Position numbers and translations under genes: made by a program
Notes under the pieces: generated by a model
What the model was told of the DNA's origin: nothing
The model's input: only the letters and a program-made list of their open reading frames with translations
The model's database searches: none
From: Chiloscyllium plagiosum
Lineage: Eukaryota
Direction of reading: 5' to 3'
Assembly: GCF_004010195.1 (NCBI RefSeq)
Contig: NC_057718.1
Coordinates: forward strand, 59,330,485-59,394,484
DNA length: 64,000 bases
Part shown: positions 4,040 to 64,000 of the stretch, in pieces
How positions within the stretch are numbered: the stretch's first letter is position 1
How the letters are laid out: each line of letters begins with the position of its first letter

Positions 4040-4720
4040 GAGACAAAAAAACTGCAGATGTTGGCAGGCAGGAGGCTGGAAGAACACAGCAAGCCAGGCA
4101 GCATCAGGAGGTGTAGAAGGCAATGTTTCAGGTGTAACCCTTCTTCAGAATTGAGGGAGAGTGTGAGGGAAACTGCAGATAAAGGGGGTGGCGGGGGCGG
4201 GGTGGTAAAGTGGAGATAGGTGAAGACAGGTAGAGGGTACGACCTGGTTGGTCAATGGGAGGAATGAATCCGGTTGGTGGCAGGGAAGAGTGTCAGTGAG
4301 GGGATGGGGCTGGGAAGGGAGTCAGGAGATTGGGAGGGAGGTTATTTGAAATTGGAGAACTCAGTGTTGAGTCCTCCAGGCTGTAGGATGCCCAGGCGGA
4401 CAGTAAGTTGTTTTTCCTCCAACAGGTGCTGTGGTTTGTTTAGCAATGGAGGAGGCCAAAGATGCTCATGCCGGAGAGTAAGTGGTTGGGGGAATTGAAA
4501 TGGGCACTGACTGGGAGGCCTGGTCAGCCCTGCAGACCCGGCTGCGATGCTCAGTCTCCCCGATGTAGAGAAGACCACATCGGGAGCACCTGATGCAATA
4601 AACTAGTATGGAAGAGAGGCAGGTGAACCTCTGTCTCACCTGGAAGGACTGTTTGGAGCCCTGGATGGAGGTGAGGGGGATGGTGAACTAGCAAGTTTTG
4701 CATTTTTTCTGGTTGCAGGG
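4040..4720 (-). mobile_element. Penelope-like element, inverted copy of the 3' part (GIY-YIG end plus tail)
   Basis: Reverse complement of ~5145-5850; ORF 4342-4578(-) HLLEEKQLTVRLGILQPGGLNTEFSNFK is the PLE GIY-YIG C-terminus. Confidence 0.85.
4121..4148 (-). ncRNA. Minimal hammerhead ribozyme motif (decayed) in PLE tail
   Basis: Minus strand CTGAAGA-AGG-GTTACA-CCT-GAAA-CATTG; core boxes and stem II present, cleavage region shows CpG decay. Confidence 0.55.
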
Positions 4721-4724
4721 TCGC

Positions 4725-5853
4725 ACCCAATATCCTGCAAAAACTCTATCTCACTCTCCTAATTCCTCCACCTCTGCTGCATCGGACAAGGAGACATTCC
4801 ACCCATGAGCGTCCCAGATGTCCACCTATTTTGAGAAACGCGCTTTTCCTCTCTCCATCATCCAGACAGCCCTGTGCCACACCACCTCTATTCCCCATTG
4901 CACCGCTCTAAACCAACACTCCCCCTCTCAACGCAATCAGGGCAATCAGAGTCCCCCTTATCCTCCACCTACCAACCCACTAGTCTCTGCATCCAATGCA
5001 TCATTCTCAAATATTTCCGTCAACTCCAAATACCCCACCACCAAGAACATCTTCCCCTCCCCACCCTTCTCAGCCTTCTGCAAGGACTGTTCCCTCAAAC
5101 AGTCCTTGGTTCACGCACCTCCCACCACCAAACACCCAGGTACCTTTCCCTGCAATCAGAAGAAATGCAAAACCTGCCAGTATACCACCACACCCCCCAC
5201 TCCCCCACCCCCCTCACCTCCATCCAGGGCCTCAAGCAGTCCTTCCAGGTTAGACAGAGGTTCACCTGCCTCTCTTCCAATCCAGTTTACTGCATCAGGT
5301 GCTCCTGATGTGGTCTTCTCTACATTGGGGAGACTGAAAATAACCTTGTGGAACAGCTCACCAAGCATCGCAGGCAGGTCCGCGGGACCGACCGGACCTC
5401 CCTGTCACCCGCCCATTTCAATTCCCCTTCCCACTCCCTTTCTGACATGACCATCCTTGACCTCCTCTATTGCCCAAACAAACCACAGCGCTTTTGGAGG
5501 AACATCTTGTCTTTCGCCTGGGCATCCTACAGCCTGGAGGACCCAATATTGAGTTCTCCAATTTCAAATAACCTCCCTCCCAATCCCCTAACTCCCTTCC
5601 CAGCCCCACCTGCTTACTGCCACTCCTCCCTGCCACCAACCAGGTCTATTCCTCCCATTGACCAACCAGGTCATACCCTCTACCCGTCTTCACCTTTCCA
5701 CACTTCACCACCCTGCCCCCACCTCCCCCTTTAACTGCAGCTCCCCCCACACCCACCTGCAGTCTTGAAGAAGGATTACAGCCAAAATGTCAACTTCTCC
5801 ACCTCCTTATGCTGCCTGGCCCACTGTGTTCCTCTAGCCTCTTGCCTGTCTAC
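4725..5853 (+). mobile_element. Penelope-like element 3' portion (linker, GIY-YIG endonuclease, tail), frameshifted
   Basis: PGTFPCNQKKCKTC and KQSFQVRQRFTCLSSNPVYCIRCS followed by LYIGET; decayed HHR 'ttgaagaaggattacagccaaaatgtc' at ~5765. Confidence 0.9.
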
Positions 5854-26690: not shown

Positions 26691-28362
26691 TATATCCTAA
26701 GAAGAATTCATTCTCTCAACAAACAGTATTTCTACACCATCTCAAACATCAAAAACTGTAAGTACAACAAACTTTTATGTACCCACTTCCATAACCAGCA
26801 CTCCTCAAACATTCCAGAAGCTTCCCCAGCCTCTGGAACTGCTCGGCCACCATTAGCCACGAGGCCTGTGCAGCTACCATCCCCATGGCGATCAATGACG
26901 TCACTTCCACCTCATCGCGGCCGCTTCAACAGCCACTTCTGCTGCTCACGAATTCACATGCACCACGCATGACATCACTTCCGCCCCTCCTGACGTCCCC
27001 ACCAGTAGCCTTCCACTGAGACTCTAATTCGTTTGGCTGAACTGGTCCTCACCCTTAACAATTTCTCCTTCGAATCCTCCCACTTCCTCCAGACAAAAGG
27101 GGTAGCCATGGGCATCTGCATGAGCCCCAGCTATGCCTGTCTCTTTGTTAGCTACATAGAACAGTCCATCTACCATAGTTACACTGACACCACTCCCCAT
27201 CTCTTCCTCCGCTACATTGATGACTGCATCGGTGCCACCTCTTGCTCCCGCAAGGAGGTTGAGCGGTTCATCAACTTCACCAACACATTCCACCCCGACC
27301 TTAAATTCACCTAGACCATCTCTGACACCTCCCTTCCCTTCCTGGACTTCCCCATCTCCATCAATGATGACTGACTTAACACTGACATCTTTTACAAATC
27401 CACTGACTCCCACAGCTACCTGGATTACACCTCTTCCCACCCTACCTCCTGCAAAAATGCTCTCCCATATTCCCAATTCCTCTGCCTCCATTGTATCTGC
27501 TCCCAGGAGGACCAGTTCTACCACAGAACACACCAGATGGCCTCCTTCTTTAAAGACCGTAATTTTCCCTTCCCATGTGGTTGAAGATGCCCTCCAACGC
27601 ATCTCATCCACATCTTGCACCTCCGCCCTCAAATCCCACCCCTCCAACCGCAACAAGGACAGAACCCCACCCTGGTCTTCACCTTCCACCTGACAAACCT
27701 CCGCATATACCACATCATCCGCCCACATTTCCACCACCTCCAAATGAACCCCAACACCAGGGATATATTCCCCTCCCCACCCTATCCACTTTCCGCAAAG
27801 ACTGCTCCCTCCACTCCCCTCCTGACATCTTCCCCTGCCACCGCAGGAATTGCAAAACCATGTACCCACACCTCCCCCCCTCACCTCCATCCAAGGGCCC
27901 AAAGGAGCCTTACTCCCTCACCACCCGAAGCCTGGAGGAAGAATGCCTCATCTTCCACCCTGGAACTCTTGAACCCCAAGGCACCAATGTGGACTTCACC
28001 AGTTTCCTCATATCCCCTCCCCCCACCTTACCCTAGTTCTAACCTGCCAACTCAGCACCATCCTCATGATCTGTCCCACCTGCCAATCTTCCTTCCCACC
28101 AATCCGCTCCCCCCTCCTCTCTGACCTATCACCTTCATCCCCACCTCCATACACCTACTGTACTCTTAGCTACCTTCTCCTAGCCCCACCTCCCTCCCAT
28201 TTATCTCTCCACCCCGAAGGCTCCCTGCCTCATTCCTAACGAAGGGCTTTTGCCAAAAACGTCAATTTTCCTGTTCCTTGGATGCTGCCTAACCTGCTGT
28301 GCTTTTCCAGCACCACTCTAATCTAGACTCTGATCTCCAGCATCTGCAGTCCTCACTTCTGC
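26691..28362 (+). mobile_element. Penelope-like element with RT and partly deleted GIY-YIG region
   Basis: ORF 27033-27314 ELVLTLNNFSF...KGVAMG..MSPSYACLF...FLRYIDDCIG is PLE RT; FPCHRRNCKT linker; decayed HHR at ~28236. Confidence 0.95.
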
Positions 28363-28582
28363 CTAATCCAAATAGCCTGCACATCCCTGGACACTATGGG
28401 CAATTTAGCATGGCCGATCCACCTGACCTGCACATCTCTGGAATGTGGAAGGAAACCACAGTACCCGGAGGAAACGTTCGCAGACATGGGGAAAATGTTC
28501 AAACTCCACAGAGACAGTTACCTGAAGATAAAAATGGCACTGTGAGGCAGCAGTGCTAACCACTGAGCCAACATGCCACCCC
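28363..28582 (-). mobile_element. HE1-type SINE 5' part
   Basis: 'ctaatccaaatagcctgcacatccctggacactatgggcaatttagc...gcagtgctaaccactgagcc'. Confidence 0.9.
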
Positions 28583-28625
28583 TTATGATCCATCATTAAG
28601 CCAACCTGGAACATACAGGGACAAG

Positions 28626-28975
28626 GGGCAGCACAGTGGCTCAGTCGTTAGCACTGCTGCCTCATAGCACCAGGAAACTGGGTCCAATTCCAGCCTTGGC
28701 GACTGTCTGTGTGGAGTTTGTACATTCTCCCGTGTCTATGTGGGTTTCCTTCAGGTGTTCTGGTTTCCTCCCACAATCCAAAGACATCCAGGTTAAGTGA
28801 ATTGGCCATGCTAAAGTGCCCCACTGTTCAGGGATGTGTAGGTTAGGTACATTAGTCAGGGGTAAATATATGATAATAGGGTAGGGGAATGGGTCTGGAT
28901 GGGTTACTCTTTGGAAAGTTGGTGTGGACTTGTTGGGCCAAAGGGCCTGTTTCCACACTGTAGGGATTCAATGAT
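28626..28975 (+). mobile_element. HE1-type SINE, full length
   Basis: Head 'ggggcagcacagtggctcagtcgttagcactgctgcctca' (A box); tail 'gggcctgtttccacactgtagggattc'. Confidence 0.95.
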
Positions 28976-30437
28976 TGCTATGAAGAACCATTTGTATGAT
29001 GGCTATGACAAGCAAATGGTGAACTGCATCTGCTCTGATTTAGGCGTCAGGAATTTATACCGTCTAATTTCTTATCGATAAAGAGGATAATTAGAAATGG
29101 AGTGTAAGTAAGGTGAGTTTGTGAGTTTAATGAACAAATTCATGGAAATAAAGTCGCCACATATCAACGACCAAATTCTGAAGTTGCCATTTAAGGTAAG
29201 TGGGAGAAACAATTTGATTTCTTTTCATTCTTACCAGTTTTTCTCACCTTTCTCATCACTAGTCACACCTCACCAGGGAGAGGAAAATATGGTGCACTGT
29301 GTTTATTGGCAACTGAATATTGTTGTGAGGTGTATTTTCTTTACCCATGCAAGCCTAGATTAGCTAATAAGCAAAGTCTGGTAGTTTTCTTTCTTAAAAA
29401 GGTGCTATAAGGTCCAAGGGAAGTGGGGCTTTTCAGATTCAAAACAACTAGCAAATTTGTGTCCTCATTATGAACTACTGTGATGTTTAGGTTCAATCTT
29501 GGCTAACATTGATTCTTTATTGCCTTTATTATGGTTTATTATTATCCTTTTAACAATATATACCGCTATGTGTGTTGAGTAGTTACTTGCAACTGCAATA
29601 CATAGCTTGCTTGTCAGCATTGTTCAATTTTCAAATTAAACCATGATGGAGTTAAAATTCCTCTTTTCATTAGTGTAGAGCATTTGAATTAATGTACAAT
29701 AATTTGGCAGGGTAGTATTAGTGAAGCAAAATTCCACTCAGGATGAAACTGCTTGAACTGATATTAATGCACTGAGGCAGCATTGATGTTCTTTGGGACT
29801 TGTTAATGGTTTGTTGAACACCAATTAAAGATTAAAATGTTGAAGCTTAGTCATACTTCCCTTCCAGCCTGTATTGCAGTAATGGTATGGACAGGAACTA
29901 GATAAGTGTAAAGGAAGCATCAACAAGTGCTCATTTTGCTACATATGGTGGTGAACATGAACAAGTAGCAGAGGATTTAACTTAGAAAGTGCATCACGGA
30001 TGGTCTGCTGCATTGCTTTTGTTGACTATTTTTCCACCCAAGATGCCAACACATTTGGCTACTGGGCCCCAATAAGGCTATGTAGTTTTGTGCAACTGAC
30101 CCAGCAACAGTATGTACCTCAATGAAATTAGGTATCCACAAAAAACACTCCTAGAAATGAAAATAACTTATCCAGATGCAGGTATTTTAATGATAGGAAG
30201 AATATTATCCTGTACATTAACACTACTAGGTCATACCAGTAATAATTACAGATTTCATTCCCCTAATGTGATTTTCTTAGGATTTTCTGGCAATCTGATA
30301 CCTTCATAATCACTTTTATTGACACAAACTTCTTATGCCCTGATTTTTAAACAAAATTTAATTCTCAAAAGATCAGACATTCTGAGGGAACAGAACAGTA
30401 AAAAAACAGAGTAGTACTTGGAAATGAACATTCTCAT

Positions 30438-35070: not shown

Positions 35071-36793
35071 TTTGGTCTAACTTGTAGTGACCATTTTAAT
35101 ATGCAGCTAAGAAATGATTCAATAGCTTACAATTAACAACCTCAAAGAGTTCTGAAAAAGGGAACATCTGGTGACTTCCCTCATTTTGATTGTGATGAAA
35201 ATGGTTGAATATGAACCCATGCTTTCTAGTGACATTACATTATCTTGGGCTGGACTTTCTTAATCCTGTGGAGACTAAAGGTATGAGGCCTGGGAAAACG
35301 GGGCAAGTTCTGTTAGGGTGGATTTCAAGTGTATTCTCACCTTGATGTGGTACTTTCTCAGAGATGTCTGTAGGTGGTGGTTGGCCAGAGGCAGGCAGCC
35401 AGTTAGAATACTTAAGGGCCAATGTACGGGCCATTTTGCTCCAATTATATTATATTGCCAATAACAGAGCAGTTCTCTGAGCACAGAGGTGGTCAATTAG
35501 GAGCTTGCCTCATGGAAGAGTGCACTGGATGGTAGGCAGAGGGCATGGGTAGGCCCAGGACTATCATATTAGTTAAAATTTGTCCTTCAACTGCACATCT
35601 ACATACTTAAATCAGTGAAAATAAAATACTGTATCCTAGGTTTTATTGAAAATATAAACAAGATTTTCTGCCACTTAAAACACAATATGAAAAAAAACAC
35701 AGGCAGAAATTTATCTAACATATGGGAGAAGCAATTCTTATGCTTTTAGCCTAGGCATAGTTATCTTGACCAATATAAATGTCACAAAATAAGTCCACTG
35801 TGGCACACCACTTGGAGAGTTTTATGAAAGTTTCTAAAATCAAAGGGTCACTTATTTCCTGCTAATTATAACTACTTGCTCCAGTTTAGTGTGAGAACAC
35901 AATATAGGTAACCTTGCAGTCATAACAAAAGTGCAAGTCATTGATAAAAGAGACTGCTGGTGCCTTACCTTCCAGAATAACTGTGTTGACCCAAAGTTTA
36001 TAACAGGACTATACCAGGAAATCCATGCAGAATATACACCTTACTGGTGAGCGAGGTACTTCGCAAAATGAAACCTTAGAAATAGACTTTGCACAAAATT
36101 CTTTATGTATGGCACATGCTTCAACTTTAACCAATCTACTTCAGGAATACTTTACACTGAAGGGAAATGCTGCTACAGGGGTTTTGAACATAATGCATAT
36201 TGACAAGGGTAAACAAACAATCTCTGACACTGGTGTGTGAAGATCAGATTTCTCTCTCTCTCTTTCTCTCAGGGGTTTAGTAAGAATATAAATCTTTCAT
36301 GACTCTATTACTTATTTATAACTCTGGGCCTTTTGGTAAATTCCAAAATTAATATCTAGCTTGTGTTTTGGTTATGATTTCTGTATAAATCTGATAATTA
36401 GGCTTTGGCTTTGTTATTATATACTTGCAATTTATTTTAGAAAATACTTTGTAGACAGTAAGTGTCGAGTGTGAGGTATATTTATGCTTTGAGCTCATGT
36501 CTATAAGAAACAAAGATTGTTCAAACTTCTTTCAATTAGCCCTTTGCTTCAGAAAAAGAATGAAAATTCTTTCATACTTATCTAATTGGATTTGATTGTT
36601 TCATTTGGGTCTAACACACACTCTACCAAAACCTTTTTTGTACTGAGAGTGATATTATCATCTTACTCATGCGGATGAGAAGTTTTGGGGATTTCTTAAA
36701 ACAGGCTTTGTTTGTATTGCAAGTGTGTACAGTATGATAAATATATTTATGTACTCTTTTGAATACACTGTGCTGAAAGGTTTGAACATTATG

Positions 36794-36910
36794 TTCTGAT
36801 GAAGGGTCACTGGACCCGAAATGTTAACGCCATTTTCTCTCTTCAGATGTTGTCAGACCTGCTGTGTTTTTCCAGAAATTTCTGTTTTTGCTTATGATTT
36901 TCAGCATTCT
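36794..36910 (+). ncRNA. Short PLE-derived unit with the best-preserved minimal HHR core
   Basis: CTGATGA-A-GGGTC-ACTG-GACCC-GAAA-TGTTA at 36796-36826, followed by the family tail 'cagacctgctgtgtttttccagaaatttctgtttttg'. Confidence 0.65.
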
Positions 36911-38100
36911 GTTTCGTTGGTATTTTGAACACTGTGAGCTTCATTTTGGAAGGCTGTAAATCAAACCTGTAATGATAAACTGTTTGCAAATAGCTTTTTT
37001 GGAAGTAACCTATCAGATTGAAAGCCAATAAATATGTTCAATAATATGTCAATCAGCTTGCTGTTTACGTGTATCTTTAAGGATGAGCAAGTCCTATGTA
37101 AAATGAATGCAACTATTTGTTTTACTCATAATATCACACAATGACGCAACACAATAGGCAAATTAAAATTATAAGGATTTGGGATTTTACATAGTATATT
37201 GCCATTACTCAACTTCCCACATATTATTCTTTAATGTGTAATGAACAAGACTAAAAGCAATGGCAAAAACTATTATTTTGCAGCTGAAAAAATAAACTGT
37301 TCTTTGTTATTTCTGTTTCAGTCCCATATTGCAAGCCACCACAAATTTAGTTACAGTGCATTTTCATTCCATTTCCTTTTATTTTGCGACGAATACAGTT
37401 ATCACCATGGCTTTCTCAGGAATAGGACTACAAAGGCATCAGGATAATTTCATATGTATTGAAAAGACATCGAGGTTTAATGCATGGTAGGTTTTACTTT
37501 CACTGCCTTCAGTACATGTTATACAATTTGCACCTCATTGGAATGCAGTTGAGCTGTTTTCCTTATCAGATTCAAACAAGATTGTTTGGTTCAGCGTAAA
37601 AAGATGGCCATCTGCCAAACAAAAAAATGTCCATCTGCTTGATGTAAGTTATCATTTATTTCAATTCCAAAGTAAATTTGTTGCAGTATGAAATATTTGA
37701 TTCATTAATTTTTCTTCTCTAACAATGCTCATTTTCTTCCTGAAAGCTATCTTGCTTTTTCACTGCAGATTTCCACATTACATAGTGGATTCAATCATTT
37801 TACAGACAACTTTGCAAGGGATGGATAGGCATTTTAAATTTTTCTCTGTTATAACATGCACAGACAGGAATCACCCGCATGCAATTTAGATTTATGGTTT
37901 AGTCTAACATAACAGTTAAGTTAATGCATGCATTTAAAATGATAAATAAGCATTTGGCTTTGATTTGCTCCACTTTCTGGCCATCTCTTCACTCCTGAAG
38001 TTGCTCATTCAAGTACTTTCAGTGATCACATAGATCACATTCAATATCACAATCCATCCACCACTGGATAATTAGCCAGAATAGAGATGTTACTGACTTT

Positions 38101-38206
38101 TCTGAAACAAAAACAGAAATTGCTGGAAAAGCTCAGTAGGTCTGGCAGTATCTGTGGAGAGAAATCAGACGTAATGTTTCAGGCTGAGTGATCCTTCCTC
38201 AGAACT
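38101..38206 (-). mobile_element. Short PLE-derived unit with HHR motif
   Basis: Minus strand gagtt-CTGAGGA-AGG-ATCACTCAG-CCT-GAAA-CATTA plus the same tail as the 36794 unit. Confidence 0.7.
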
Positions 38207-38489
38207 CCAGGGGTCCAGGGTGATGACTGTATTCATCACAACATAAAAGAAAGCGCAATGAAAATGCTCTATAACTAAATTGGTAGTGGCTTGCAATATG
38301 AGACTGAAATAGAAATAACTCAGAACAGTTTAATTTGTCAGCTGCAAAATACTAACTCCAGGATTAACTGGACGCAGCAGCAACAGCCAAATTGTATCAG
38401 TGACTTGCATGACTTTAAGCAAACCGACAGAAGATACATTTTGTCTATAGCAGGTGTGAGCAGTCATGCAGCAAGTGATATTGAACTGA

Positions 38490-38746
38490 AGATGGCAACA
38501 AGTGGTAAAACACAGGAGAGTGTGGGCTCCAAACCTTTCAGACACAGCACCCTGGAGGCTTTGGTGGAGAAGGTGGAAAGGAGAAGAGGTGCTTTGCCTT
38601 CACACAGGATGCTAAGAGACCTTTCCAACAGAATGCTTAGAAGACAGTGGCAGCAGTTAGCCCTGGTGATCAATGCCAGAAGTCCAATTCTGTGGTCCTG
38701 AATGCAGTGCTGCAAGATGTTCAATGGCCTTTTACTTGTGGTCAAG
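38490..38746 (+). mobile_element. PIF/Harbinger Myb/SANT-like exon relic
   Basis: KPFRHSTLEALVEKVERRRGAL...LRRQWQQLALVINARS...WS*MQCCKMFNGL..VVK, then donor 'aag|gtcag'. Confidence 0.75.
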
Positions 38747-38826
38747 GTCAGCGAGCGCATCTTGAAATGTAATATCAAACTAACTGCACCACTGGAATAT
38801 GACACTCCCCACCTTTCCTGACCATT

Positions 38827-39230
38827 CATAGAGTCATACAGGCGTACAGCATGGAAACAGACCCTTTGTTCCAACTCGTCTATGCTGACCAGATAGCCTA
38901 AATAAATCTAGTCCCATTTGCCAGCACTTGGCCCATATCCCTCGAAACTCTTTCTGATCATATACCCATCCAGATGCCTTTTAAATGTTGCAATTGTACT
39001 AGCCTCCACCATTTCCTCTGGCAGCTCATTCGATACATGCACCACCCTCCACATGAAAAGGTTGCCCCTTAGATCCCTTTTAAACCTTTCCCCTCTCACC
39101 TTAAACCTATGCTCTCTAGTTCTGGACTCCACTACCCCAGGAAAAAGACATTGTCTATTCAACCTATCCATACCCCTCACGATTGTATAAACTTCTACAG
39201 GTCGACCTGCAGCCTCCGATGCTCCAGGAA
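38827..39230 (-). mobile_element. CR1/HER1-type LINE 3' fragment
   Basis: ORF 38908-39288(-) GMDRLNRQCLFP...FKVRGERFKRDLRGNLF...ELPEEMVEA. Confidence 0.95.
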
Positions 39231-39652
39231 AATCATTTTTTAACCTCCAACAATGAGGCCTCCCACCTATTCTATACATAGTCTTCACCTCACCCTCAGA
39301 TACTTTACTGCAAACCTCAATTCAGATCTCATACATCTTACACACTGCCGTCTATTGAAACCACATTACAAAGATTGCACAACACTCATGACACATGTAT
39401 ATCTGATTCACCTCTTTTCATTCATACCATTCATTTTGTACTGTAAGTGGATTGCTTACAATTGTATCCATGTTTGCAAGCAACTCATTTCAGGAAAAGA
39501 CCTCAAAGTCAGCAAAAAGATCCTCAGAGTAAGGCCCTAGGTCCAACCATTTTTAGTTGTTTTATCAGTGACTATCCCTCCTTCAGAAGGTCAGATGTGC
39601 TTATGTTTGCCAATGATTGCATAATATTCTGTATCACTGGTGACTCTTCATA

Positions 39653-39738
39653 TATTGAAATAGTCTATGGTTCATATACAGCAGAATCTGAAACATGATT
39701 CAGATTCTGCTGTATATGAACCATAGACTATTTCAATA
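39653..39738. repeat. Perfect 40-bp inverted repeat with 6-nt spacer
   Basis: 39653-39692 is the exact reverse complement of 39699-39738; spacer ACATGA. Confidence 0.97.
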
Positions 39739-39741
39739 GAC

Positions 39742-39864
39742 TAGGAAGGGTTTGGAGGGATATGGGCTGGCAGGTGGGACTAGATTGGGTTGGGATATCT
39801 GGTCGGCATGGACGGGTTGGACCGAAGGGTCTGTTTCTATGCTGTACATTTCTATGACTCTATG
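39742..39864 (+). mobile_element. Short CR1/HER1 3' end
   Basis: 'ggaagggtttggagggatatggg...ggttggaccgaagggtctgtttctatgctgtacatttctatgactctatga'. Confidence 0.9.
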
Positions 39865-40787
39865 AGTGTAGCACTAACAGCATTCAAGATGTTCAACATC
39901 ATCAAGCAGCCTGTCTGCCACCTTAATCATTCACTCCTTCCACCCTCAATGCATAGTGGCAGCAGTCTGTACTACATACACACTGCACTGAAACAACTCG
40001 TCAAGCCTTGTTTAACAGCATCTTCAAAACTTGCAATCTCTACCAACTAGAAGAACAAGAACAGCAGTTGCATGGGAACACCACCACCTGCAAGTCGCCC
40101 TCCAAGCACATTCCAAGCTGACTTGGACCTATATTGATGTACCTTCACTGTCGATGTAGTCACTTCCTAACAGCAGTGTGGATACCCTTCAACTCAAGAA
40201 CTGTGACAGTTCAAGAAGGCAGCTCACCAACACTTTTTCCAGGATAATTAGGGATGGGCAATAAATGCTGGCCTTGCCAGTCATGGCCACATCACATGCA
40301 AGAATAAGTAAAGCACCAGCACCTGATTCTCTGTTGAATTTTATAACTTTAAACAGCTTCACATACATATAAAATTCAAGCAACAGCTAGAAAAATCAAT
40401 CAGCATAATAAAATATAAATGGTTGATAATCCTTTTACTGGTGGGGGAATTCTACCTGCTGATGAACAATTTTCATTTGTACGAGATTAACACAGGGTGG
40501 AGTGGTGAGCTGCAAAATAGCACCACTGGCATCAAATCAGTGCTGCATGCTGGTTAACAACTTGATCTGCCTGCTTTGCCTAATTACAGTGCTCATTCGC
40601 TGTGCCTATGCTAATGCCTTCACCAACATGGTGCCTGCTGCAACTTGCCTAACAATTTACTCTGGCATCCTGGACGCTACTTGAAATTCTAAAGGGACTT
40701 GTAGGATCCAAAAACTGAGTACAAATGGTTTCAATTCCTTACCTCTTCTGCTTCAATAAGGAAAGGTAATTATCCCTTCATGCAGAT

Positions 40788-41098
40788 ATTAGATTACATT
40801 ACAGTGTGGAAACAGGCCCTTCGGCCCAACAAATCCACACTGACCCGCCGAAGCGTAACCCACCCATACCCCTACATTTACCCCTTACCTAACACTACAG
40901 GCAATTTAGCATGGCCAATTCACCTGACCTGCACATCTTTGGACTGTGGGAGGAAACCGGAGCACCCGGAGGAAACCCACGCAGACACGGGGAGAATGTG
41001 CAAACTCCACACAGTCAGTCGCCTGAGGCGGGAATTGAACCCAGGTCTCTGGCGCAGTGAGGCAGCAGTGCTAACCAGTGTGCCACCATGCCGCCCAC
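40788..41098 (-). mobile_element. HE1-type SINE, full length, young (CpGs intact)
   Basis: Complete head to tail; 'aaaccggagcacccggaggaaacccacgcagacacgggg'. Confidence 0.97.
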
Positions 41099-41100
41099 AG

Positions 41101-41146
41101 TAGAATGGTAAAGTACCATTCTATTCAATGATAGAATGGTACTTTA
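41101..41146. repeat. Perfect 16-bp inverted repeat with 6-nt spacer plus a third 10-bp copy
   Basis: TAAAGTACCATTCTAT (41109-41124) / ATAGAATGGTACTTTA (41131-41146); TAGAATGGTA also at 41101-41110. Confidence 0.9.
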
Positions 41147-57710: not shown

Positions 57711-59789
57711 CTGTAGATGAAATATAACATTAGAGAAGTTATCTAACAGTTAAGTTTTTATTAAAATGATCTTAGGTGTTCAGAATCAATGTATAATAAA
57801 TAATGTCAGTTTATAACCTGCTGATGTACAATCAGCATGGACACATGATTATTTGTAACTCTGAAATCATGGTTTCTTTGTGAATGTTCTAAACTTATTG
57901 CTATAACAGCATTTTAATTTTCAGTTTTTACTTGTTATGTCAAAAAAAATTCTGTTAATAAAAATGAGAGAATCCTTTATCTTTACAAGCTTTCATTAAT
58001 TTAATTAAGCAGCTCCAAAATGTGTAAGAAATCAAAGAAACAAGATAGAATATTGTTAAACCTAAATGATCGCTGTTCATTTATCAACATTTCTGCCGTC
58101 GTCCTCATTTTACCAGAAACACTCAATGATTTCTTTTTTTTAATTTTGTGAAGACTGTTTTTAAAAAGTACCAAAGAAAAGTTCTGATTTCTTACCAGAG
58201 AAATAAAAATCTCCTTACATTTTGTTACCTATAGAATAGTACTCATTTGATTATGTAAAGTTGATACAATTCAGCAACTGAGCAGCCTTCCATTTTTCAT
58301 CATAGAGCTTGCTTTTTTTGCTTTTACCTAACCTATTCAACCTGTCCAAGGATGGGAGGAGCCACATCAGTCTTCCCACAGTCTGGTGCTTAAGATTGTT
58401 ACACTTAATTTTTAAGAATAATTCAGATCAGCACAATGGACCAATTTTGTGTTCATTTATGTGGCACGAATTGAATTGCCAGTTGTGAGAATAAACAGCT
58501 TGGAGTCAGTGAAATTGAGAATTTATGTTCCATTTTTTCACACGAGTTTTAGAGATCTTTAATGTCAGATTAAGAATTTTTATTTATATTTAAGTTGACT
58601 TTACAACTTTAAAATGAATGCTAAACCTATAATATGATTTCAGTCTATACCATAAATAATATTGCAAAAGTCAAAAATCTCAATAAAGAGACACATTGCT
58701 GTGGATCAAAGGACTTTGCATATAAATGTCATTGACTATAAATATAGATATACAATCTTTATTTTCTCAAAGAGCAAACAGATTGCATTACTTTCCACCA
58801 TTTAATTTGAGATTTTGTGCCTATATAGCTGCTTTGTTAATTCGCAATGCAATCTGTCAACACAGAACTCTTTACCCATTGGACACAGTATATTAAAACT
58901 GTCATGGAGCTTGAGTAATCATATAAGGTGAGCTATGAAAGTATACAGGTGATGATGTGACAATGATACAGTGGTGCCAAAATGTCAGGTTTTTTTAAAC
59001 AAGTGAACACCAAAGCATAATGTTTGACCAACATAATGCTGCAGTTCTTTTGCTTATTGCATTACATTTAATCAGAAAATAATTATTTGCAGTCCTTTTG
59101 AAAAGGTGCCAGTTTTAATTCAGTTTCAAATACATTTGATTTGGAGAGCTTCATTCCTTCAAAGCATATTTTATTAACGTCAGACTTCTAGATAGAAAAA
59201 AGCTATTGTTTCTAAGCTCATATTCGGATCAAATGCTTCTGCGTTCATGTTCAAAGATCCACAGAACAACTTAAACTTCAGTCAGAGGGAAATCCCTGCC
59301 CCCCTCCAGTTCTCCCAGTCAGAATTGTTTGAAACTTCAACACTGTTCACAGCTAAGCCTAAACTATTTTCTTGTGAATTCTGCCATAGAGGCTTTCAAA
59401 TGAGAATTCATATTAATGATCAAGAGTAATAACCATAATTAATTTATTTCTCCTTTCAAATAAAAGAGCACTGAAGAGGATTCCCTACTACCAACCCAAC
59501 TAAAATAGTCTAACTTACTGTAAACCAAGAACTTTCTGTTCTGTATCATTTCAGGTTTACATTGGGCAATTCACTGATTAACTCAGCTAAAAATCAGCCA
59601 GAAATGACAATTATAATAATAATTGTGATGATTGATATTTAACATTTTCAGCATGACATTTTCACTTGAATACTTGAATCAGTAGAATATTTGAAAAGAG
59701 AGACAACTATTAATTGTTTATTTCTGATTTCAGATTGACTGAATAAACTGTATCATCTCCTTTGCAACCAAATTACCATAGAATTGCCA

Positions 59790-60065
59790 CAAAAAACAGA
59801 CACAATTGGAAATGCTCAGCAAATGTGGCAGATCTCTTGAAGGAATTGGAAGTCTCCAAATCAAATAGATTTGAAAATGAGTTTAAATTTATCTTTATTT
59901 TTAAGAATGTTTATTAACAATTAATTTCAAAGTAACCATAATAAACAGAGCAGTTCTGACCAAAGATCCTGTTTGTTTCTGTGTAGACGCTGCCATATCT
60001 GCTGACTGTTTCCTGCATTTTCTGTTTTTATTATAGATTTTCAGCATCTACAGTATCTTGTTATT
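59790..60065. mobile_element. Decayed divergent pair of short PLE-derived units
   Basis: Minus remnant 59791-59840 'aaaacagacacaattggaaatgctcagcaaatgtggcag'; plus remnant 59951-60062 'cagttctga...tagacgctgccatatctgctga...cagcatctacagta'. Confidence 0.5.
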
Positions 60066-63489: not shown

Positions 63490-64000
63490 ATCTGTTCTTA
63501 TGTTATTATGCACCTCTGTAGCAGGTGAAACTTAGATAGGGACACTACTGATGGAGGGATGGTTGTTGATGAAACAGCTGAAGATGATTGGGCCTGGAGG
63601 CCATTACCCTTAGGAACTTAACTGGTTAAGAAAGAATTTAGCAAGCTTGCCTTCCTTGCTTAGACCTTTGAATATAGGAGTTGGGATGTAATGTTGAGGT
63701 TGTACAGGACGTTGATGAGGCCTCTTCTGAAATACTGAGTGCAGTTCTTTTGCCAGGCCATTGCTAGGAATGGAGGATTTGAATTATAAAAATAGACTGA
63801 ATAGGCTGGAACATTTTTTCAAGGAAGTGTAGGAGATTGAAGCGTGACCTTATTGAGGTTTCTAAAATCATGACGGGGCATAGATAAGATGAATGGCAAG
63901 GTTCTTTTCCCTCGGGTAGGGGAGTTCAAAGCTAGGGGGTATATTTTAAAGGTGTGAGTAGTAAGACTTAAAAATGACATGACAAGCAAATGTTTTCTAC
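63490..64000 (+). mobile_element. CR1 LINE ORF2 C-terminal fragment (runs off the window)
   Basis: 'gagtt gggatgtaatgttgaggttgtacaggacgttgatgaggcctcttctg' (LYRTLMRPLL) and DLIEVSKIM. Confidence 0.9.

Follow-up and report, generated by a model that had tools for sequence, protein, structure and literature searches.

A perfect 40-bp palindrome at the 5' junction of a young CR1 insertion in Chiloscyllium plagiosum: a probable snap-back scar of 5'-end joining

The 64,000-nucleotide stretch of Chiloscyllium plagiosum DNA analysed here (contig NC_057718.1; hereafter the window) contains a decayed LINE, a perfect palindrome and a young CR1 copy in direct succession; the features of this locus and of a second, similar one are collected in Table 1. 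A scan of the whole window for inverted repeats with perfect arms of at least 11 and a spacer of at most 40 confirmed that the 40-bp fold-back with a 6-nt spacer described in a previous sequence-only reading is present in the assembled sequence, with 40 of 40 positions matching between the arms. It was the longest of the four perfect inverted repeats that the scan detected (40 bp, 16 bp at 41109–41146, 12 bp and 11 bp), and the longest arm obtained in 20 third-order Markov simulations of the window was at most 13 bp. A MITE or another element with inverted ends of its own was considered and rejected, since the arm consists of host ORF2 sequence and the left-arm sequence has no other copy within the window. 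L1-type twin priming was rejected as well, the inverted piece being flank and not element.

Table 1 Features of the two palindromic junctions (positions are those of the window)
Feature	Position	Strand	Remarks
Decayed CR1-group LINE ORF2 fragment, RT core and following helix; upstream target DNA	39522..39703	+	16 relatives at E<=0.001
Left arm	39653..39692	+	Native host sequence; template
Loop, 6 nt	39693..39698	+	Native
Right arm	39699..39738		Exact reverse complement of left arm
First 5 nt of right arm, putative primer pairing with 39688–39692	39699..39703	+	Ile-Gln codons match family
Net templated synthesis, 35 nt, inverted from 39653–39687	39704..39738	+	
Probable second slip, 8-nt inverted copy of 39661–39668	39736..39743	+	
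Young 5'-truncated CR1 3' end with short tail repeat and 7-nt internal deletion	39742..39865	+	Alignment with six other copies
Downstream flank, probably later part of the same decayed ORF2	39866..40290	+	Weak profile match
Full-length SINE with CR1-type 3' end; natural 5' end ~41096	40783..41096	-	
Second templated piece, 10-nt re-copy of 41132–41141	41101..41110	-	Overlaps arm by 2 nt
Second perfect palindrome, 16-bp arms 41109–41124 and 41131–41146, 6-nt loop	41109..41146		Upstream of minus-strand SINE

The match of the focal CR1 to six other copies starts 3 nt past the right arm, exactly where the young, 5'-truncated element had been said to begin, and its 3' end and tail repeat align with these copies, consistent with target-primed reverse transcription. 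The assignment to CR1 rests on ORF2-like frames upstream in longer copies, and not on a repeat library, together with the 3' end of the focal element, which we take to be that of CR1. The 5' boundary is slightly ambiguous, as the arm's final 4 nt agree with the family sequence immediately before 39742 as well. Comparison with the closest copy revealed differences at 5 of 124 aligned sites, and 2 of 124 were private to the focal element when it was compared with the four closest copies. Seven nucleotides that are present in all six other copies are absent from it at 39765–39767, ~24 nt from the 5' junction; this deletion may have arisen in the repair that formed the junction or may have been inherited from the source element. 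Analysis of the 5' BLAST ends of ten CR1 3' pieces placed three of them (39742, 17725 and 6273) within ~15 nt of one family position, which possibly reflects a preferred site of truncation or a non-autonomous source of short length. Since two other CR1 copies end this close to the same family position, 125 nt appears to be an ordinary insert length. No target-site duplication was seen at the focal CR1. An older minus-strand CR1 lies ~500 nt upstream at 38823–39235, inverted relative to the focal copy and 80% identical over 112 nt.

If the CR1 serves as a clock, arms of 40 bp have a chance of 0.28–0.03 of remaining free of mismatches at a divergence of 1.6–4.3%, so that the perfection of the arms requires neither selection nor function. 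It is highly improbable, in our judgement, that the hairpin is a functional small-RNA precursor, of whatever origin, whose perfection is held by selection, because youth alone explains the perfect arms. The fold itself is very stable (−75.6 kcal/mol as RNA, z = −13; 0 of 200 shuffles equally good), and a 40-bp stem falls within the 30–55 range used for miRNA-like hairpins (10.1101/2023.04.19.537475). However, with a 40-bp stem and a 6-nt loop on the plus strand (the stem is 43 bp on the minus strand), the hairpin lies just outside the optimum reported for miRNA precursors under mammalian rules, for the stem (36 ± 3 bp) as well as for the loop (at least 10 nt), although loops of 3–23 nt are described there as still tolerated (PMC5340965). 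In the primate survey, moreover, such hairpins, more than 6,000 in number, were reported to include ~18 that had become miRNA genes (10.1101/2023.04.19.537475). The suggestion of the sequence-only reading that the transcript could be a Dicer or Drosha substrate thus gained no support from stem and loop sizes or from Rfam, in which all 13 matches in 39400–40400 scored below the gathering score (best match 49 bits vs 230). Public sequencing runs listed with at least half of the words of the region made up 8 rows under three organism labels, with no RNA run among those listed; these shares were given no weight as evidence. A Pfam scan of 109 of the 142 stop-to-stop frames of at least 72 aa revealed no host exon, and only two RT fragments matched.

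Perfect arms within decayed DNA could also be produced by a fold-back chimera formed during library preparation or assembly. In this locus, however, the fold-back extends over a short distance and passes into a CR1 5' end and then into host sequence of the same orientation, a second case with the same layout is present in the window (see below), and clean arms are expected at the age of the CR1; we therefore regard an artefact of this kind as very unlikely.

The DNA that received the insertion is itself an old LINE, and the sequence-only reading had placed the left arm within it. This was borne out by relatives, the best of which share 53–59% amino-acid identity with it over ~45 residues. Frameshift-aware alignment of the left flank with a six-protein profile covered 39522–39706 with a score of 86, compared with a maximum of 23.3 in 30 shuffles, and the best match of the host-LINE profile was a shark protein. 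No intact DNA-level copy of the host LINE was found in the window or in sequence collections: another copy of the family in the window (63545–63619) is too short to span the junction, a first protein search gave no match, and the host-LINE profile returned 266 pattern matches in sequence collections with 0 confirmed relatives. Because no long intact member of the family was retrieved, the length of host sequence missing at the insertion was estimated from distant relatives.

The position at which the host sequence gives way to copied sequence can be narrowed by the reading frame. Codons 39698–39703 encode Ile-Gln, in agreement with the Ile-Gln of the family, and the next codon disagrees. Since the host frame matches the family through 39703 and then breaks, the right arm probably opens with 5 native nt, which would have formed a 5-bp hairpin with 39688–39692 before the event; the indication is a modest one, as the alignment enters the right arm by two matching codons and has to accommodate one frameshift as well as a gap within the loop. 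The extra bases (39704–39741) sit between the host frame and the CR1 start, and the inverted copy that makes up most of them derives from the DNA directly upstream, at the 5' side of the CR1. The 3 nt between the arm and the CR1 would probably be accounted for by a second template slip, represented by an 8-nt piece (39736–39743) that shares 3 nt with the arm and 2 nt with the CR1; this is weak evidence when taken alone, given a chance of ~0.10 that a random 3 nt shows a templated match of at least 8 nt. The copied tract would have ended either in this 2-nt CR1 overlap after the slip or in the last 4 nt of the arm that match the CR1 family sequence, both of which are short.

Beyond the CR1, position 39893 maps to profile position 193, and the left side ends near ~60; from this offset ~0.3–0.4 kb of the host LINE seems to be missing at the insertion, a loss that the right flank suggests weakly. 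The profile match of the right flank was equalled by 4, 5, 10 and 18 of 300 shuffles when profiles of 95, 30, 15 and 8 proteins were used, respectively. Its frameshift-aware alignment did not beat the shuffles (25.1 vs a maximum of 26.0 in 40), nor did the right flank continue the host frame (score of 18.6, equal to the maximum of 20 shuffles). In a tblastn search with 135 relatives, none of the 132 that gave any match spanned both flanks.

The second-longest perfect palindrome of the window, which the sequence-only reading had not mentioned, has the same layout as that at 39653–39738. Its end is separated by 12 nt from a full-length SINE whose 5' end is the natural one; between the 10-nt re-copy that adjoins it and the SINE start lie 4 further nt. 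A 4-nt AT-rich candidate duplication at this SINE was too short to be given weight. We considered 19 CR1 and SINE copies, the 5' ends of the old copies among them being set by BLAST ends and therefore approximate. Hairpins with a score of at least 9 occurred at 2 of the 19 5' ends and at 0 of the 19 3' ends, with a background of 0.6% of positions; the remaining 17 5' ends had no such hairpin, and at a score of 8 the numbers were 2 at 5' ends vs 1 at 3' ends. As the focal hairpin had been chosen by the earlier reader, the independent test comes from the SINE case alone. For one given hairpin, the probability of landing in the 20-nt zone beside any of the 18 other listed 5' ends was 0.006, a value that perhaps doubles if unlisted families are counted, since the list covers CR1 and SINE copies only and the target zone is understated accordingly.

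The position of the two palindromes also bears on whether a replication template switch made the focal palindrome independently, the CR1 having landed beside it before or afterwards, possibly via breakage of the hairpin. A single template switch suffices to make a perfect hairpin, which is reported to have happened thousands of times in the primate lineage, but in the same report the distances from events to transposable elements were no different from random (10.1101/2023.04.19.537475). The two long palindromes of the window are no more than 3 and 12 nt away from 5' ends, with none beside a 3' end, and we consider an independent origin by replication improbable.

We instead think it likely that the palindrome is a scar of 5'-end joining in CR1 retrotransposition, that is, a snap-back junction with templated 5' extra nucleotides. 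When a plus-strand element inserts by target-primed reverse transcription, the 3' end of the top strand is found on the upstream chromosome end. By the established course of this reaction, reverse transcription would have been primed at the right-hand nick and would have stopped after ~125 nt. The upstream chromosome end may have been cut back by ~0.3–0.4 kb of the old LINE, as the flank comparison weakly suggests. Its 3' end would then have folded on the native 5-bp inverted repeat with the 6-nt loop, and a polymerase would have copied back 35 nt of the flank; the product of this step is read directly in the right arm, and the 5-bp repeat is its presumed primer. The new end may have melted off, slipped once more and copied 5 nt, a step to which the 8-nt piece weakly points and which would have created the 2-nt overlap with the cDNA end. 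Annealing of this end to the cDNA, followed by fill-in and ligation, would have completed the junction. A mirror route, in which the cDNA end switches to the flank as its template and is extended toward the break, would yield the same sequence and be indistinguishable from it. Candidate enzymes for the copying would be Pol theta-type synthesis-dependent end joining or the reverse transcriptase of the element itself. The hairpin would probably be a neutral by-product of this process, perfect because it is young.

The snap-back reading fits because the inverted copy comes from upstream DNA, it lies at the 5' side of the CR1, a plausible native 5-nt primer adjoins it and an independent second palindrome repeats the arrangement. 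The sequence-only reading had likewise proposed that upstream target DNA was copied back on itself while the CR1 5' junction was resolved. These four points argue for its snap-back part, whereas its timing at insertion is putative; its account lacked the apparent loss of host LINE, the probable second slip and the second palindrome.

With respect to timing, the copying may instead have taken place after integration: a longer CR1 would have been inserted in the ordinary way, and a later double-strand break would have been fixed by synthesis-dependent end joining, with loss of a host segment and of the 5' part of the CR1 and with a snap-back copy left behind. Fold-back insertions of 5–150 bp are reported to form at plain breaks without a retroelement (PMC11724301), and the 7-nt deletion inside the CR1 lies close to the junction. 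The apparent host loss of 0.3–0.4 kb is better explained by later repair, since wild-type assays seldom yield a target deletion as large as this: 24 of 25 ZfL2-2 inserts in DT40 cells were described with short alterations, and long truncations (at least 343 bp) were frequent only without Ku70 (PMC2666801). This rarity favours later repair over joining at insertion. On the other hand, the second palindrome reaches as far as a full-length SINE and halts at the natural 5' end of that element, a place that a random deletion would not single out, and the 125 nt of the focal CR1 is an ordinary insert length, as the two other copies with nearby ends indicate. We thus regard later repair as unlikely, while giving it real weight.

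Joining at insertion by snap-back, the reading we prefer, has counterparts in several known systems. Non-LTR elements of the CR1 group in zebrafish provide the nearest: 5' extra nucleotides were reported on ~40% of genomic ZfL2-2 copies (PMC2666801), and those of ZfL2-1 and ZfL2-2 are described as largely flank-templated (PMC4245944 and PMC4760211, citing Kajikawa 2012, PMID 22405943). As in these elements, the focal copy is a 5'-truncated member of the CR1 group with flank-copied bases between flank and element and with short microhomologies. Unlike them, it is a natural germ-line locus in a shark-like genome, its copied piece is 35–38 nt long and forms a perfect hairpin, and a long target loss is suggested. 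Insertions made with R2 protein (PRINT) include a named snap-back class in which nearby target DNA can take part (PMC11371274, PMC11331408); there, too, the reverse complement of nearby target DNA is fused at the 5' junction before joining, although in the cases described it is mostly cDNA that is copied and target DNA less often, and the system is engineered, site-specific and operated in human cells.

Similar patterns are known from the repair of plain breaks. Snap-back SD-MMEJ is described as yielding an inverted-repeat pattern of this kind (PMC2943611), and Pol theta is reported to copy in such a manner with repeated template switches, with a median insertion of 7 bp in vitro (PMC4912351). 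The likeness to SD-MMEJ, Pol theta products and local fold-back in yeast extends to a short primer repeat, an inverted copy, microhomology to the other end and repeated switching, but the breaks in those studies were made by nucleases and involved no retroelement (yeast: PMC11724301). In human L1 assays, inverted flank and templated pieces of flank were found in three insertions each (PMC11702581), and 12–15% of truncated human L1 and Alu copies are reported to carry 5' extra nucleotides (PMC2912911). The L1 cases resemble the present one in that flank on the insert's 5' side is inverted or templated and in target deletions with 5'-truncated inserts; they differ in that they concern human L1 in p53-type cell models, and the structures may differ in size (PMC11702581). 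Template-switch miRNA hairpins share with the focal palindrome a perfect hairpin of pre-miRNA size made in one step, but they are linked to replication, return to the original template, do not lie at transposon ends and have been shown to be expressed (10.1101/2023.04.19.537475). Taken together, the locus appears to work like the known flank-templated or snap-back 5' junctions of non-LTR elements, with three of their four defining features found here; the fourth would be an origin of the extra bases in common with the insert and their absence from the site before insertion. Our search of the literature, carried out mainly outside subscription journals, found no account of fold-back junctions of shark CR1 or SINE copies, and a 22-nt CR1 3' motif gave 0 matches in viral contigs and 0 in metagenome contigs.

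As a single locus, the palindrome offers a clean natural example of a type of junction known mostly from cell assays, and it concerns the joining of 5' ends in the germ line, a retrotransposition step for which the responsible enzymes remain debated. The finding of two cases in 64 kb suggests that young CR1 and SINE insertions of sharks could be mined in large numbers for primer lengths, tract lengths and switching patterns. A much broader claim, which we consider doubtful, would be that 5' joining of CR1 and of CR1-mobilised SINEs in the shark lineage routinely uses multi-step fold-back copying of the flank, that several percent of young copies carry its trace and that it constitutes a transposon-coupled route to new small-RNA genes. 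In the window, 2 of 19 CR1 and SINE copies have a fold-back 5' junction, and CR1-group elements are reported to make up 22–34% of elasmobranch genomes (PMC13343379). If the broader claim were true, such joining would supply perfect short hairpins on a large and uncounted scale, some being of pre-miRNA size, and the route to small-RNA genes would be distinct from replication template switching. If some of the hairpins were processed, the repair of retrotransposon junctions would join the origins already known for new microRNA hairpins.

Further repeats with inverted arrangements were observed in the window. A head-to-head pair of SINEs occupies 28377–28976, with 5' ends ~40 nt apart and sequences that are 78–81% alike. 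Two long inverted-repeat pairs lie within 36793–38354, one between 37271–37410 and 38215–38354 (86%) and the other between 36793–36893 and 38105–38205 (76%). They are adjoined by a 140-aa frame at 38279–38701 that had no Pfam match and that we presume to resemble the Myb/SANT-like proteins of Harbinger transposons. At 4065–5848, ~650-bp inverted arms with 80% identity flank frames resembling those at 27009–28124, where the frames gave a weak RVT_1 match; the element at 4065–5848 is presumably Penelope-like. Finally, an inverted pair of ~50 nt at 59113–59162 and 59837–59887, with 85% identity, possibly represents the ends of a small DNA transposon.
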